Virus record (IMG/VR): IMGVR_UViG_2534681912_000004
Reading direction: 5' to 3' (one strand)
From: a virus
Lineage: Duplodnaviria > Heunggongvirae > Uroviricota > Caudoviricetes
Length of the DNA stretch: 7,188 nt
Shown here: piece after piece, positions 230 to 6,761 of the stretch
Layout of the letters: each line of letters opens with the position of its first letter
Position numbering within the stretch: the first letter of the stretch is position 1
Translations under genes and position numbers: made by a program
The notes under the pieces: generated by a model
What the model was told of the DNA's origin: nothing
What the model saw: the letters and a program-made list of their open reading frames with translations, nothing else
The model's database searches: none

Positions 230-829
230 TCAGAATTTATAACCGACACCCACGATGAAACCGTCAGTGCGCCAGTCACCACTGCCGGAACCTTCATAAG
301 CAAGGTCAATGGCCACGGATTCGGTCGGGTTAAACTGCACGCCAGCCCCCCACGCCAGAGACGTGTTGCTGTGGCGACCGTCATCACTTCCAGTCAGCAC
401 ATCGTGCGTTTTCCCCTTGCTGTCAGTTACGCGGAGATAATCCCCGGAGAACGTCGAAACACGGCTGTAAGCCACACCCGCCATCGCATAAGCACTGAAC
501 CATTCATTCACGCGTACAGACGGCCCCGCCATCATGCTGAACCAGCGGTTACGCACTGAATCTTCATGCCAGCGGGTATCGCTGTAATGCGTTTTTTGCT
601 CATCTTTGGCATTGGCATAACTGAATGACGTCACCAGCCCCAGCGTGTCCGTAAATTCATAACGGTATTTCACGTTAATGCCCTTCAGGTCATCGTTGCC
701 GGGCATATCAGTATGGGTCTGAAGATACCCGGCGCTTAGTGTGGACTGATGCTCTGCTGCGCTCGCTGGCGTACCAGCAGCAACCAGCCAGACTACTGCG
801 GACAGAATAACAGCACATAATTTACGCAT
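230..829 (-). CDS. lom: Outer membrane protein Lom (Ail/Lom/OmpX/PagC family beta-barrel), moron-type lysogenic conversion gene
   Basis: 199-aa ORF with N-terminal signal peptide (MRKLCAVILSAVVWLVAAGTPASA, AXA-type cleavage site) and C-terminus ...DLAYEGSGSGDWRTDGFIVGVGYKF ending in an aromatic residue as in OMP beta-barrels. Internal blocks (KGINVKYRYE, SAYAMAGVA, YEGSGSGDWRTDGFIVGVGYKF) match lambda Lom as I recall it. RBS GAGAGG upstream of ATG at 829; TGA stop at 232-230. Confidence 0.9.
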   Translation of the reverse strand: MRKLCAVILSAVVWLVAAGTPASAAEHQSTLSAGYLQTHTDMPGNDDLKGINVKYRYEFTDTLGLVTSFSYANAKDEQKTHYSDTRWHEDSVRNRWFSMMAGPSVRVNEWFSAYAMAGVAYSRVSTFSGDYLRVTDSKGKTHDVLTGSDDGRHSNTSLAWGAGVQFNPTESVAIDLAYEGSGSGDWRTDGFIVGVGYKF

Positions 830-896: not shown

Positions 897-3800
897 TCAG
901 CTGATACTGATGCCTGCGGTGGCTTTCTTCATCACCACAACCAGCAAATCGCTGATACTTGCTGTGGGATACCAGTCATTTACCAGCCATGCTGACACCG
1001 AAAACTCCAGCGTCATGTGACCGTGACCGGCAGGCATATCAATAACGCCACTGTAAATCAGCGTATTATCCAGCGCGGTACGGTTATAAATTTCAGCACC
1101 GTTTTTCCGCACTATCAGACGGCATGAGGAGTAAATATCAGTATGCTCTCTCTCATGTTTAGCGCCGCTGAATGCCACCGCCGGAATAACAATCTGCCGG
1201 TCAAACGGCTGATCGTCATAAATCCTGACGGTAATGGTCCCTGATGGCCACCGTTCCGGTGCACGGGAGTCCCGGGGGAAAGCTTTGCCCACTGTTTTAA
1301 CGAGATCGCCTTCAATCTGGTTCGCGGACAGTTTTCCCAGAACCCGGCAGTTCTCGTTAATCGTGACGTTGTTGAGCGTCCCGGAGTTCGCATTCACGTT
1401 ACCGCTGATATCGGCATTTTTCGCCGTCAGCCGCCCGTCCGGTGTCAGGGAAAATGCCGGAGGATTACCGCCGCTGGTAATGGTGGGAGCCGTCAGATAT
1501 TTCAGGAACACTTCATTCATAAATATCTGATCGCCCTGACCAACAAACATCGGCTTTGTGTTGCCATTCGCAGGATTAACCATCGCAATCCTGTCCGCCG
1601 CCAGCAGCACCTGACTCTGCATGCCGTCAGGGGTGTTCTCAATACCGGCACCAATACCCGCGATATAAAGGCGTCCGTCCTGCATCTGCTGCAGCTTCAC
1701 AGCCCACATGCTGTTCAGGTTATTATTTGTATCAACCTGAACCTTCTGTATCTGCTGGATCGCTGCACTCTGGTCTTCCAGTTTCTTATTGACGGTCTGC
1801 GTGATTTCATTACTGACATCCGTGATGGACGTTCTGATTTCCGCCAGGTCAGGCGCAAGCTGACCGTTATCAATCTGCGTCCACAACTCCTGAGCCAGAT
1901 GGGTTTTCCCTATCTCTCCTTTGAAAAAATCCAGATAGCCGGATGCATCATCACTCGGCTGGCCAACAGCCTCCACGAATGCCGATTTGCCAACGGTGTT
2001 CACACTGCGGATGTAAAAATAATAATCATGGCCCGGCTTGATATTGATACTGGCAGCTATCCAGTACAGCGCCGTGCCAAGATAGCGGGCTGTGGTTTCA
2101 ACCTGCCTGATATCCGCAATCCGCTTTTCCGAGAACCAGAACTCAAACTGTACCGTCGGATCATAAACGGCAAGATACGGCGTGGCGGTTATCTGAAAAT
2201 AGCCCGGCGTCAGCTCAATCCGCGACGGCGCTGCCGGTGCGGCAATCCGGAACGATACCGATGCCGGATCGCCCTGCTGCCCCCAGGCATTTGCCGCCCG
2301 GACTGTCAGCCTGTAGTTTCCCAGCGCCAGTTGCGTGAAGCGGTATGTGGTTTCCGTCGTCCTGGCCGTGCTGACCAGCCGCTCACTGCCGTCATCCGCT
2401 GCCACGGTCAGACGAAGCATAAAGCTCACGCCCTTCACCACCTTCGGCGTGTCCCATCGCGCCAGCACCTGATATTCCCCGCTGTCTGCGGTGACTTCGG
2501 CGGTCAGGTGCTGCACCGCTGGCGGCGTGACACCATTCACCGTGCCGCTCTGGTCGCCGTCAAAGTGCGCCCCGTTATCCACGATGGCCTCTTTCTCCGG
2601 CACATGCTGCACGGCGGTGATGGCATACGTGCCGTCGTCGTTCTCACGGATACTCACGCAGCGGAACAGTCGCTGGCGCAGCGTCGGCAGCTTCAGCCCC
2701 CATACGCTGTATTCAGCAACACCGCCAGGAACACGGCTCACTTTTACCTTCACGCCGTCGGTGACGGACTGAACCTCCACGCTGACCGGACTCCCCTGCC
2801 CGTCAACCAGGCTTATCAGCGTGATGCCGGAGGATGGCAGCGTGATTTCACGGTCGAGCGTCAGCGTCCGCGTCTGGCTGTTCACCGCCAGCACCCCCCC
2901 GCCGATGCTGATACCCGCATAGTCATCATCACAGATTTCAATGACATCGCCCGGTACATGGCGAAGCCCTTCGGCACCCACGCTGAAGTCCACGGTCTGC
3001 GTTTCCAGCAGCTCCGTTTTAATCAGCCACAGCCCGGCGCGGTGTGCCTGCCCCCGGCTGGTACAGCCAAAGGCATCCATCTTCGTGACGTTACGACCGT
3101 AACGGGCAATGGCCTGCGTATCCTCAACAAGCTCTGTCGCCGTCTCCCAGCCGTTATCCGGGTCAATCCAGTTCACCTCAACGGCATTATGGCGGTCCTT
3201 CAGGGCGCTGAAGCTGTAGCGGAACGGCGCGCCATCATCCGGCATCACCACATTACTGCGGTTATAGGTCCACACCTTATCCGACGGTCGGTCCTGCACG
3301 AACGTCAGCGTCTGCCCGTTCCATACCGGCATACAGCGCATCGCCGAGCAGAAATCACTGAGCACATCCCACGCCTTGCGCTGTGTGGTCAGGTACGCAT
3401 TACAGGTGATGCGCGGCTCCGTGCCGCCAAAGCCGTCCGGCACTGACTGGTCGCAGTACTGGCCGATGACATACAGCGCCCATTTGTCCACATCCGCCGC
3501 ACCAAGACGTTTCCCCATGCCGTAGCGTGGATGGGTCAGCATATCCCACAGACACCAGGCCATGTTATTGCTGTATGCTGGCTTAAACGTTCCGTCCCAG
3601 ATACCGCTGTATTGCCGAGTCTGCGGGTTATAGTTCGACGGCACCTGCAGAATACGCCCGCGCAGATGATAATTACGGCTCACCTGCTGGCTGCCGAACT
3701 GCTCCGAATCCACCTGTACGCCGACCAGTGCCGTGTTCGGGTAGCACTGTTTCACATCGATGATTTCGGTGTATGACGACCAGAGCGTTTTGTTCTGCAG

Positions 3801-4376
3801 CTGGTCTGTGGTGCTGTCCGGCGTCATCCTGCGCATCCGGATATTGAACGGACGCGGCGGCAGGTCACCCACCACCACCGATGCCAGATACTGTGAGGTG
3901 GTTTTGCCTTTAATGGTGATGTCTTTTTCCGTCACCCAGCCACCATTACGCTGTATCTGAACCAGCAGGCGGACTTCCGACGGATTCCGGTCCCCCTTTG
4001 AGGTGGTTTCCACCAGTGCCTGCACACCGAAGGTAAAGCGCAGACGGTCGATGTTTGCCGACGTGATGGTCCGGGTAATCGGCGTGTCGTACTTCACTTC
4101 CGTACCCAGCACCGTCTCGGAGCCGGAGGATTCAAATCCCTCCGGCGGTGTCTGCTCCTGCTCACCGGCCCGGAACACCACCGTGACGCCGGATATATTG
4201 GTATTCCCCTCACTGTCCAGCACCGGCGTACTGTTCAGCAGCACGCTTTTTAATCCATCCACCGGACCTTCAACCGGCCCTTCGCTGATGGCATCAATCA
4301 CACTCAGCAGCTGCGTGGACTTCAGGTTGTCCTTCGCTTCGCGCGGGGTATGCCCCTTACTGCTGCCTTTACCCAT
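897..4376 (-). CDS. J: Tail tip central fibre / host specificity protein J (1159 aa)
   Basis: Single 3480-nt ORF. N-terminus [34 protein letters not shown]... and long internal stretches match lambda gpJ as I recall it (about 1132 aa). ATG at 4376 preceded by GGAG. Position between I and lom is syntenic with lambda. The C-terminal third differs in composition (see findings). Confidence 0.95.
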
Positions 4377-4436: not shown

Positions 4437-5078
4437 TCAGCGACCAATCACCACAACCTGACCACCATCACCTTCATCTGCCGTGCTGATCTCCTGAGAA
4501 ACCACACGTGACCCCACGCGCATTTCACCGTACAGAACCGGCAGAACATTGCCCTGGGCAACCATGTTATCCAGTGAAGAAAAATAGGTGTTCTGTTTGC
4601 CGTTATCCGTTGTCTGTGTGCGGGGGGTTTTGGGTTTAGGGGCCAGCATCTGTGCAACACCGCCAAGCGTCATACTGGCACCGAGAGAAAACAGCAGATT
4701 ACTCGCCATAATTCCTACCCCCGGCATCCATATAGCAACCGCCATAACAGCCGCCCCCAGCACAGCCTGAAACACACCGCCACTTTTGGCTCCTGCCAGA
4801 CGCGGCACGATATGGATCACGGCACCATTTGCCAGCGGCTCATTAAGACGGGCAGACAATTCGGTTTCACCTGCATCACGCCCGGCAATGCGTACCTGGT
4901 ACCAGCCGTCGCTCAGTTTCTGACGAAATGCCGGGATCTGCATGGCCAGCGCCCGGATGGCTTCGGACCCCGTTTTCACTCGAAGGTCGATGCGGCGGCC
5001 AAATCGTTGTAAATCCCCGTAAAGGCAGATGCGTGCCATGCCCGGTGACGCCAGAGGGAGTGTGTGCGTCGCTGCCAT
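4437..5078 (-). CDS. I: Tail tip assembly protein I (213 aa): N-terminal ubiquitin-like domain plus hydrophobic segment
   Basis: ORF translation MAATHTLPLASPGMARICLYGDLQRFGRRIDLRVKTG... and C-terminus ...NTYFSSLDNMVAQGNVLPVLYGEMRVGSRVVSQEISTADEGDGGQVVVIGR match lambda gpI as I recall it. Start is 103 nt inside the 3' end of K in another frame, which I recall is also the lambda arrangement. RBS-like GAGAGAGG upstream, with a rather long spacer of about 11 nt. Confidence 0.9.
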   Translation of the reverse strand: MAATHTLPLASPGMARICLYGDLQRFGRRIDLRVKTGSEAIRALAMQIPAFRQKLSDGWYQVRIAGRDAGETELSARLNEPLANGAVIHIVPRLAGAKSGGVFQAVLGAAVMAVAIWMPGVGIMASNLLFSLGASMTLGGVAQMLAPKPKTPRTQTTDNGKQNTYFSSLDNMVAQGNVLPVLYGEMRVGSRVVSQEISTADEGDGGQVVVIGR

Positions 5079-5719
5079 TTGTCGGTGTACCTCTCTCGTT
5101 TGCTCAGTTGTTCAGGAATATGGTGCAGCAGCTCGCTGTCACCACAGTAAATGGCGGCATGATTCGGCACCGATGAACCAAAACAGCACAGCAGCACATC
5201 GCCCGGCTGCGCCGCTGACAACGGCACCTGATACAGCCCTGTGGCCTCCAGATTATCCAGATAGAGATTCTGACCGTTACGCCACCAGTCATCCCCGCGA
5301 TGAAAATCCGGCATCTCAATTCCCGCCAGATGGTAAGCGTCCCGGAACAGCGTGTAACAGTCCGTTACCCCGTGCTCAAAGCGCCGCCCGGTGAGATGCG
5401 GCACACAGCGGAATTTATGAATCGCCCCCCGGCAGACCAGCCACCACGGCAAATCACTCTGTACCTGCAGCCGCCGGTCGGCCTCACTCAGCCAGGGCAG
5501 ACCACCGGGGTGGCTGTGGACCAGCGCCACAATCTCTCCCTGCATTTCTGCACTCAGCCAGTCCTCCGGCGACATCCGGAAATACTCCTCCGGCTCACCG
5601 GAGATATTCACGCAGGGAAAATATCTTTCCTCCTCCGGCGTTCTCACCACGAAGCCGCACGACTCCGCTGGCGCACATCGCCGGGCGTGCGCCAGAATCG
5701 CTGATTCTGTCTCTGTCAT
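4976..5719 (-). CDS. K: Tail tip assembly protein K (JAMM/MPN metalloprotease-like domain plus NlpC/P60-like domain). Longest ORF is 247 aa; alternative internal start at 5575 would give 199 aa
   Basis: Translation contains an exact JAMM motif HSHPGGLPWLSEAD (H-x-H-x7-S-x2-D) and an NlpC/P60-like Cys-His region (GVTDCYTLF ... NHAAIYCGD ... LLHH). Position between L and I is syntenic with lambda. The start at 5719 lies 5 nt after the L stop but has no obvious SD. The internal ATG at 5575 has a strong GGAGGAG SD 9 nt upstream. Confidence 0.85.
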   Translation of the reverse strand: MTETESAILAHARRCAPAESCGFVVRTPEEERYFPCVNISGEPEEYFRMSPEDWLSAEMQGEIVALVHSHPGGLPWLSEADRRLQVQSDLPWWLVCRGAIHKFRCVPHLTGRRFEHGVTDCYTLFRDAYHLAGIEMPDFHRGDDWWRNGQNLYLDNLEATGLYQVPLSAAQPGDVLLCCFGSSVPNHAAIYCGDSELLHHIPEQLSKRERYTDKWQRRTHSLWRHRAWHASAFTGIYNDLAAASTFE

Positions 5720-5724
5720 GGGAT

Positions 5725-6423
5725 TTACTGCGAAAGTTTGTTAATGGAAAGGAAGCTGCCAAAGTTGCCGACATTATTGCGAAACTTACAGCCACTCAGG
5801 CATTTGCTGCATTTATCCTTCGTGATATCGGACGTCGGCTGGTCATATTCATCCGCGACCGCCGGACCGTGATAACCGCACTCATCGCCGCGATAGGTCC
5901 AGGTGCAGGTGTTGGCCAGCATGATACGTCCCGGAAAAACAGCGCCATCCGTTTCAGTCGGCGTGGACAGTACAAAAGAGGCACTGACCGCGCTCAGTTC
6001 GCTGCACTGCTCGATGCGCCAGCGGCTGATCACCTCCTGCTCCGGATCGGCTTCGCTGTTTCCGTTGACGAAGTTCACCGCATCCAGAAAGCGGGCGTAA
6101 ACCTTACGCCGGACCACCGTTCCGCCGACCAGACTCTGCAGATCTTCCGCCATCCCGGTGATCATGCCGTGCAGGTTAGAGACCGCCAGTGTCGGACGGG
6201 CAGCACTGCCCTTGCCGTTCATCTCAAATCCACTCCCCTGAATGGGATAGGCCTGATACTGCCGACTCTGCCAGGTGACAGACTCACCTTTTTCGTTCTG
6301 CTCATTACAGAAAAAGTAGCGATCCCCGCCTACCTCGGTCAGGTCGATTTCCCAGAGCACCACGCTGGCCGACTGCTCCGCACGAATGCATTCATTCAGC
6401 GTTTCCTGTTGTATGTCCTGCAT
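5725..6423 (-). CDS. L: Minor tail / tail tip protein L (232 aa) with C-terminal cysteine cluster
   Basis: Translation MQDIQQETLNECIRAEQSASVVLWEIDLTEVGG... through ...CSKCLSGCKFRNNVGNFGSFLSINKLSQ is near-identical to lambda gpL as I recall it. Its ATG overlaps the M stop (TGATG at 6425-6421). Confidence 0.95.
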   Translation of the reverse strand: MQDIQQETLNECIRAEQSASVVLWEIDLTEVGGDRYFFCNEQNEKGESVTWQSRQYQAYPIQGSGFEMNGKGSAARPTLAVSNLHGMITGMAEDLQSLVGGTVVRRKVYARFLDAVNFVNGNSEADPEQEVISRWRIEQCSELSAVSASFVLSTPTETDGAVFPGRIMLANTCTWTYRGDECGYHGPAVADEYDQPTSDITKDKCSKCLSGCKFRNNVGNFGSFLSINKLSQ

Positions 6424-6761
6424 CAGATCACCACTTCGTCAAACTGACACGAAAAATCGGTATAGGTGATATGTTCTGTCGCTGACCACGTTCGACACAC
6501 CACTCTGATTTTTCTGTTAATACCCGGCGGGCGCCAAAAAAAAGATTTATAGCCTTCATGCCGGGCTAAAAATTTTTCAAATGAATCACGTTCATTCGCC
6601 TCAACTTTGAAATCACAGGTGAAAACGCGCAGAGAATGATTAAGTCCATTTGGACTTCGTTGCTCATAACCATCGCCAAATCTTACAGTTTTTATCGATG
6701 GTTTATTTTCTGTTTTCATTCCATCCTCTGGTAACCAGTGAAATTCTTCCGTATTAGCCAC
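6423..6761 (-). CDS. M: Minor tail protein M (112 aa, GTG start)
   Basis: ORF with conserved core TVRFGDGYEQRSPNGLN...KSFFWRPP...FDEVVI resembling lambda gpM (KVRFGDGYSQRAPAGLN...KSFLWTPP...FEQVVN, from memory). The N-terminal F-x-W...PEDGM aligns with lambda F-R-W...KPGM, supporting the GTG at 6761. Alternative ATG at 6719 (Met15). Stop overlaps the L start. Confidence 0.85.
   Translation of the reverse strand: MANTEEFHWLPEDGMKTENKPSIKTVRFGDGYEQRSPNGLNHSLRVFTCDFKVEANERDSFEKFLARHEGYKSFFWRPPGINRKIRVVCRTWSATEHITYTDFSCQFDEVVI

Follow-up and report, generated by a model that had tools for sequence, protein, structure and literature searches.

The 7,188-nucleotide stretch of DNA analyzed here (the window) carries the section of a lambdoid late operon that encodes the tail tip. 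It is read from the minus strand and begins, in transcription order, with the end of H (Table 1). The order L-K-I-J that is typical of the siphovirus tail-tip module is present, with K lying between L and I as it does in lambda. Across L-K-I, the window matches Escherichia phage PhiR49_1 at 100% identity, and its K is ~96% identical to lambda TAPK over the region that the two share. The product of the downstream gene I combines a ubiquitin-like domain with a tail-tip plug, with the Pfam family Lambda_tail_I covering residues 14–97. The open reading frame (ORF) of K is 744 nt long including the stop codon, and a public record that is identical to the K of the window (PV340568) carries this same 744-nt annotation.

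Table 1. Genes, signals, and domains at the K locus; positions are those of the window.
Feature	Position	Strand	Evidence or remark
Tail-tip part of lambdoid late operon	7,188-base window	minus	ORF list
H, end of gene		minus	ORF list; first of the window's operon genes in transcription order
M	6423-6761	minus	ORF list
L, 232 aa, immediately upstream of K	5725..6423	minus	ORF list
K, full CDS, 247 aa plus stop	4976..5719	minus	Predicted JAMM/MPN+ domain fused to predicted NlpC/P60 (C40) domain
I, 213 aa from ATG 5078	4437..5078	minus	ORF list; overlaps the 3' end of K
J	897-4376	minus	ORF list
lom	230-829	minus	ORF list
L stop codon TAA (5727-5725) and 5-nt spacer ATCCC	5720..5727	minus	Sequence
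K start codon ATG, without Shine-Dalgarno	5717..5719	minus	ATG in 151/151 unique lambda-clade sequences
Disputed 144 nt, K codons 1-48	5576..5719	minus	Pfam, conservation, pLDDT, substitution pattern
E19 codon	5663..5665	minus	Upstream Glu of the JAMM motif E-x(n)-H-S-H-x7-S-x2-D
JAMM metal-binding motif HSHPGGLPWLSEAD, residues 68-81	5477..5518	minus	H68, S69, H70, S78, D81
Prok-JAB domain (PF14464), residues 4-98	5426..5710	minus	Pfam, Foldseek
NlpC/P60 domain (PF00877), residues 111-224	5048..5389	minus	Pfam, conservation, Foldseek; C121, H187, H199
Internal Shine-Dalgarno-like GGAGGAG, codons P43-E44-E45	5585..5591	minus	Sequence
Internal ATG, Met49, start of the 199-aa form	5573..5575	minus	Sequence

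Two in-frame start codons compete for K. The first-pass annotation had drawn attention to the longest K ORF, which opens at ATG 5719, encodes 247 aa and has no obvious Shine-Dalgarno (SD) sequence, and to GGAGGAG placed 9 nt before the ATG at 5575 (Met49), from which a 199-aa product would result. Both descriptions are accurate: the predicted anti-SD duplex energy is +0.7 kcal/mol for the 19 nt upstream of the first ATG and −9.5 kcal/mol for the site at Met49. The length of 199 aa that was given for annotated lambda K is also correct (NC_001416, 14276..14875). A start at Met49 would leave 149 nt between L and K, which would be the longest gap of an operon whose other junctions are overlaps or gaps of ~60–67 nt, in keeping with the earlier remark that the 144 nt in question would make an odd noncoding interval.

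The junction between L and K—i.e. a 5-nt gap with no SD sequence—is conserved in layout among lambda-clade phages and in distant ones. Among 151 unique lambda-clade sequences, 85–100% identical, the first ATG is invariant, and in 150 of them a spacer of 4–5 nt separates it from the L stop codon. An uninterrupted ORF through codon 247 is present in 144 of these sequences; 3 run off the end of a contig and 4 are interrupted. Similarly, T1, HK75, one Mannheimia phage, and one Klebsiella phage have an annotated K start that is offset from the L stop by −4 to +3 nt; in mEp021, K homology begins at the L stop and the annotated start is 7 codons downstream. Across the six phages examined, the K product measures 236–250 aa. 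One junction earlier, M and L overlap by 1 nt, and L likewise has a weak SD sequence.

Based on this layout, the K ATG is most likely reached by termination–reinitiation from L, with ribosomes that terminate at the L stop, 5 nt upstream, initiating K at ATG 5719. Closeness of stop and start codons and the absence of an SD sequence of its own are features that K shares with the coupled gene pairs of phage late operons. Taken with the evidence presented below, K is very probably translated from ATG 5719 as a 247-residue protein, and some internal initiation at Met49 may possibly occur in addition.

The domain content of the two versions differs markedly. Searches of the 247-aa protein against Pfam recover Prok-JAB with 52.9 bits over positions 4–103 of the 114 in the profile, compared with 22.8 bits for the 199-aa version, which aligns to profile positions 64–103 only and falls below the gathering cut-off of 25 bits. 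The 48-residue extension by itself scores 25 bits against the same profile. In the C-terminal half of K, NLPC_P60 is recovered with 46.1 bits (cut-off 23 bits). The JAMM motif is complete only in the longer form (E19, H68-S69-H70, S78, and D81), as the shorter form lacks E19. This residue belongs to APAESCGFVV (residues 16–25), 49 residues before H68, and it is indeed the upstream Glu that the first-pass annotation had placed within the extension and had expected a Met49 start to remove.

Structure prediction points in the same direction. An AF2 model of the 247-aa protein, built on an alignment of 40 homologues, has a mean pLDDT of 95.8 and a pTM of 0.91, and its residues 1–48 form a helix (3–15) and two strands (21–26 and 31–36) with pLDDT values of 96–98. 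Foldseek searches of the PDB match the N-terminal half of the model to PfJAMM1 (5ld9, target-normalized TM 0.62), Rpn11, AMSH, and CSN5, all with a probability of 1.0, and the C-terminal half to MepS and other NlpC/P60 enzymes (target-normalized TM 0.55–0.68). When the 40-homologue profile is compared with PDB sequences, a P-E-x-C-G motif in the extension aligns with the N-terminal motif of the JAMM proteins 2kks, 2kcq, and 5lda. By sequence and predicted fold, residues 1–105 are thus a complete JAMM/MPN+ metalloprotease domain with E19, H68, H70, S78, and D81 as its motif residues, and residues 111–224 are a predicted NlpC/P60 cysteine peptidase domain (C121, H187, and H199). On the same fold and motif evidence, a start at Met49 would cost the protein its catalytic Glu and three core secondary-structure elements (helix 1 and strands 1–2).

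The extension is also conserved well beyond the lambda clade. A scan of 1.84 billion representative proteins recovers full-length relatives of ~230–260 aa and 34–59% identity whose own first residues match query residues 1–20; a scan of viral contigs with the 59%-identical homologue (P0127) returned no match. In a tblastn search of 50,697 phage records, which is independent of how these records were annotated, the match extends over 80% or more of the query in 1,722 of 1,761 matching records and begins at residues 1–8. Within the 40-homologue alignment, G22 and N38 of the extension are invariant and conservation reaches at least 90% for P17, E19, C21, and F47; homologues of 32–58% identity keep all six positions. 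Further downstream, H68, S69, D81, and, in the NlpC/P60 domain, H187 are invariant, and H70, S78, C121, and H199 are conserved in at least 90% of homologues.

Substitutions among the lambda-clade sequences carry a signature of purifying selection in the K frame. Specifically, variable sites in codons 1–48 number 13, 6, and 28 at the first, second, and third codon positions (chi-square P = 3e-4), with a pN/pS of 0.24; for codons 49–247 the figures are 64, 37, and 126, and 0.16. Neither of the remaining frames is free of stop codons over the 144 nt. The Pfam comparison of both versions, the alignment of homologues, and the test for a synonymous bias had all been suggested by the first-pass annotation as ways to probe its view that the extension is real, and all three favor the 247-aa ORF.

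If the long form is the real one, the 199 aa annotated for lambda call for an explanation, and we find it in a single base. In the reference genome (NC_001416/J02459) the long K ORF is closed, and an ORF listing returns the 199-aa ORF alone. At the site concerned, the sequence is GGAGGC-TATTTCCGTATG in reference lambda and GGAGGCGTATTTCCGTATG in LC730321, a resequenced lambda. The G is missing after C14266, at codon 45/46, which puts codons 1–45 out of frame in the reference, such that the ATG adjoining L opens an ORF of 76 codons and the frame changes just before Met49. Programmed frameshifting that would rejoin the two reference frames was considered and rejected, as there is no slippery run at GAG GCT ATT TCC GTA TG. 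In the window, by contrast, the K frame runs uninterrupted from the L-adjacent ATG, other lambda stocks match it in this respect, and the extra base seen in LC730321 is carried by all other lambdoid phages that we compared.

The deletion is restricted to four phage records: J02459, NC_001416, OR474059 (an "UNVERIFIED" engineered strain), and OR974322. The last of these, labeled "Lambda", is an assembly from chicken swabs. Every other lambda-derived record has the additional G, including KT232076, PV340536, LC730321, DE3, lambda imm21, imm434, h434 imm21, HK629, and HK630. Among 5,426 complete Escherichia coli genomes, 4,264 records match the K site (the best of them at 99.4% over 162 nt), and in none is the deletion version the best-matching place. 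The 38-mer of the deletion version, searched for as an exact match, is absent from IMG/VR and from the contigs of JGI metagenomes and GTDB genomes, and the version with the G occurs in at least 120 IMG/VR contigs. Judging from the records compared, the 199-residue lambda K exists only through the G that the reference lacks after 14266. The first-pass annotation had proposed that short annotations in this family may be N-terminally truncated, and this is very probably the case; in lambda, however, the cause is the missing G that puts the extension out of frame, and not an annotator's preference for the better ribosome-binding site (RBS).

Whether the reference lost this base through a reading error or carries a real mutation has consequences for K. 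A whole-genome comparison reveals that PV340536 and LC730321 share the same differences from reference lambda, as does DE3 wherever it aligns. These comprise the loss of G138, the G added after 14266, and substitutions at 20661, 22444, 25662, 31016, 34934, and 45618, and the reference is the outlier to these three other lambda stocks at every one of them, genome-wide. Each of the six substitutions runs from GC to AT in the direction of the reference, which looks like real, chemical mutagenesis in the lineage of the sequenced cI857 ind1 Sam7 phage rather than a set of reading errors. Of the Sam7-bearing records, OR474059, with ind1, cI857, Sam7, and nin5, matches the reference in every other respect, and OR974322 carries Sam7 together with the reference alleles. 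The stocks also vary in stf, which is frameshifted in PV340536 as it is in the reference, and in LC730321 an extra C joins the two stf ORFs.

The GC-to-AT pattern, along with two Sam7-bearing records that share all reference alleles, speaks for a real mutation, private to the sequenced lambda cI857 ind1 Sam7 stock, as the origin of the missing G rather than a reading error made in 1982. We regard this as somewhat unlikely, though a reading to be kept in mind. If it were correct, a widely used infectious phage would lack an intact 247-aa K and would survive on a 199-aa product initiated from the RBS at Met49 (K'), possibly along with a separate N-terminal fragment of 76 codons. As such, an intact JAMM domain would be either dispensable for plaque formation or reconstituted from two chains, and the covalent 247-aa form would not be strictly essential.

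The same scenario bears on a reading under which the locus makes two products—i.e. the 247-aa K coupled to L and, from in-frame initiation at Met49, K', whose NlpC/P60 domain would be intact and whose JAMM domain would be crippled—as the infectious reference stock would have to rely on the Met49 start if its frameshift is real. The site itself is a near-ideal RBS, combining −9.5 kcal/mol and a 9-nt spacer with an ATG, and codon 49 is ATG in 148 of the 151 unique lambda-clade sequences. Lambda also offers precedents for in-frame internal starts in C/Nu3 and S107/S105, both of which are annotated as pairs in NC_001416. Yet conservation among sequences that are just 85–100% identical weighs little, and it fades outside the clade: codon 49 is ATT or ATA (Ile) in relatives of 73–93% identity, and the position is mostly Ile across the 40-homologue alignment of distant proteins. 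In the Salmonella clade, GAACCCAC takes the place of GGAGG and the SD-like motif has disappeared, while the ATG 4–6 nt after the L stop is retained. The GGAGG arises from codons of a conserved Glu-Pro-Glu stretch, and the short form would be without helix 1 and strands 1–2 of the fold. From these comparisons, GGAGGAG and the ATG of Met49 are best seen as a by-product of the conserved Glu-Pro-Glu codons and of a hydrophobic core position, and not as a conserved start; that K' is a second product of the gene is, in our view, unlikely.

Readings that dispense with the first ATG altogether fare far worse. That K consists solely of the 199-aa ORF beginning at Met49, with the upstream 144 nt being noncoding or an unrelated leader, would agree with the length given by the lambda reference and by UniProt-style annotation, with the strong SD sequence at Met49, and with the short K annotated in DE3 and lambda imm434. 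We find it highly improbable, given that the family's best-conserved N-terminal residues lie in the extension, which matches Prok-JAB unaided, that the 144 nt evolve under purifying selection in the K frame, that close relatives lack a start codon at position 49, and that the short annotation goes back to a one-base frameshift peculiar to one reference sequence. Equally hard to credit are two other internal starts that occur in public records, at GTG codon 25 (223 aa; NC_049955) and GTG codon 37 (211 aa; KT232076). Both are preceded by SD-like sequences (−6.1 and −9.3 kcal/mol, respectively), but either would remove E19, C21, and G22 together with the first helix and strand, and homologues align from residue ~4–10 onward. 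Initiation at the L-adjacent ATG 5719 is the reading that we carry forward.

It should be noted that the 247-aa K is already known. It is the standard PGAP call (WP_000194780), as for example in E. coli J53, and 744-nt versions are also annotated in many GenBank records, including PV340536, PhiR49_1, phage 434, and phage 1W. The architecture has been published as well, with K described as a JAB plus NlpC/P60 protein between 2003 and 2006 (PMC1779556 for 2006). What is new here is the cause of the short annotation—i.e. the G missing from the reference; in the searchable literature we found no paper that states the additional G after 14266 or a sequencing error in K, and an earlier report may exist.

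Meanwhile, the short model has spread by homology to genomes in which the long ORF is intact. For example, it is annotated in DE3 and in lambda imm434 (OM418626), in the latter case with an annotated RBS. RefSeq NP_040598 is 199 aa long, and in a collection of 5.8 billion proteins the large K clusters are of 247 aa, with several 199-aa clusters that contain thousands of members each. The short model has also reached the literature, as a 2020 review treated K as a protein of "199 residues" in which the peptidase domain alone was recognized (PMC7291167), and an expression library from 2025 lists NP_040598 for gpK (bioRxiv 10.1101/2025.07.02.662641). Any construct of K derived from the 199-aa annotation would be without the catalytic Glu and one third of the JAMM fold. 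Because such a construct is incomplete, negative results obtained with it on K activity, K interactions, or the processing of gpI would be uninformative. The value of our finding is practical, as a single-base cause in the lambda reference allows for a simple correction.

K is needed for tail assembly (PMC12617516), and it goes undetected by mass spectrometry of lambda virions (PMC10721106). Its absence from virions makes a role in the cell wall doubtful, even though the C-terminal domain shares the conserved Cys-His-His positions of NlpC/P60 (C40) peptidases such as E. coli MepS/Spr. It differs from MepS/Spr in having no signal peptide or lipobox context, and K would be cytoplasmic during assembly. 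Based on this literature, K is a putative non-virion peptidase of tail-tip assembly.

The N-terminal domain, in turn, resembles prokaryotic JAMM/MPN+ proteins (PfJAMM1 5ld9/5lda, 2kks, 2kcq, and the archaeal HvJAMM1) in its E...HxH...S..D and P-E-x-C-G motifs and in its predicted fold. It differs from them in being fused to NlpC/P60 and in acting in phage tail assembly, its peptidase role being predicted. PfJAMM1 and HvJAMM1 cleave ubiquitin-like SAMPs, and K adjoins the gene for a ubiquitin-like protein, I (PMC1779556). Iyer et al. (PMC1779556) predicted a proteolytic step in which the JAB domain of K removes the ubiquitin-like N-terminal domain from I, and the tail tip shows only C-terminal gpI, comprising residues 135–223 or residue 101 onward in the two literature sources. 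The predicted cleavage of I by K is consistent with the present data.

We find that the lambda reference genome is missing a single G, a deletion shared by the phage records OR474059 and OR974322; every other lambda-derived record has this base, as does every other lambdoid K gene. Its absence splits the tail assembly gene K of the reference in two, i.e. an upstream open reading frame (ORF) of 76 codons and the annotated ORF of 199 aa. Across 5,426 E. coli genomes, no record had the deletion version as its best match, and this version was likewise absent from IMG/VR, JGI metagenome contigs, and GTDB genomes. The record OR974322.1 describes a "Lambda isolate" from chicken cloacal swabs; over its whole length, it differs from the laboratory reference by the Sam7 mutation (45352 G>A), a cluster of 4 bases at 45037–45041, and one deletion. 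OR974322.1 probably represents lambda DNA of laboratory or control origin, and not an environmental phage.

Comparisons with other lambda stocks also reveal differences from NC_001416. Specifically, PV340536 and LC730321 (Lambda_AGU) share eight of these, and DE3 has them too wherever it aligns. All six substitutions compared are A/T in the reference and G/C in the other stocks, which suggests that they are genuine changes, produced by mutagenesis, of the cI857 ind1 Sam7 lineage that was sequenced. In the stf gene of Lambda_AGU (LC730321.1), an extra C relative to the reference is present near reference position 20832; this is the Ur-lambda state, with the side tail fibre gene restored. The stf gene of PV340536 is split, as in the reference.

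Near-identical K DNA is annotated with four different starts across public records (see table), and a GGAG or GGAGG derived from Glu codons precedes every internal start in use. Among lambda-clade sequences, synonymous divergence (pS) is lower in K codons 1–48 (0.078; window 5576–5719) than in the rest of the gene (0.123; 4979–5575), for which a recombination boundary or constraint on the coupled initiation region are possible causes.

The phage of the window is not lambda itself. Its M sequence differs from that of lambda, and the listed ORF begins with GTG and encodes 112 aa, compared with 109 aa in lambda. J is longer in this phage (1159 vs 1132 aa) and Lom is shorter (199 vs 206 aa).

Features of the K region and neighboring genes (window coordinates unless stated)
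Feature	Position	Strand	Detail
Missing G in lambda reference K	NC_001416 14266-14267 (L002 967-968)		Equivalent window position about 5583-5586
K start, public records	ATG adjoining L		247 aa
K start, public records	GTG codon 25		223 aa
K start, public records	GTG codon 37		211 aa
K start, public records	Met49		199 aa
M	6423-6761		Sequence different from lambda M
J	897-4376		1159 aa
lom	230-829		Lom 199 aa
Gene I	4437-5078	-	Alternative starts ATG 5078, ATG 5039, GTG 4979

The start-site problem of gene I is the mirror image of that of K. In the phage PhiR49_1, I is annotated from a GTG start that overlaps the K stop, and PGAP likewise begins I on the final 4 nt of K in E. coli J53; with such late starts, I is 180–190 aa long. 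Positions 2–83 of the Pfam Lambda_tail_I profile are covered only with a start at or before Met14, and the GTG start loses positions 1–25, including an ICLYG stretch that we read as the putative first strand of the ubiquitin-like domain. A strong Shine-Dalgarno sequence (−9.3 kcal/mol) is found at ATG 5078, the start that matches the old 223-aa lambda annotation.
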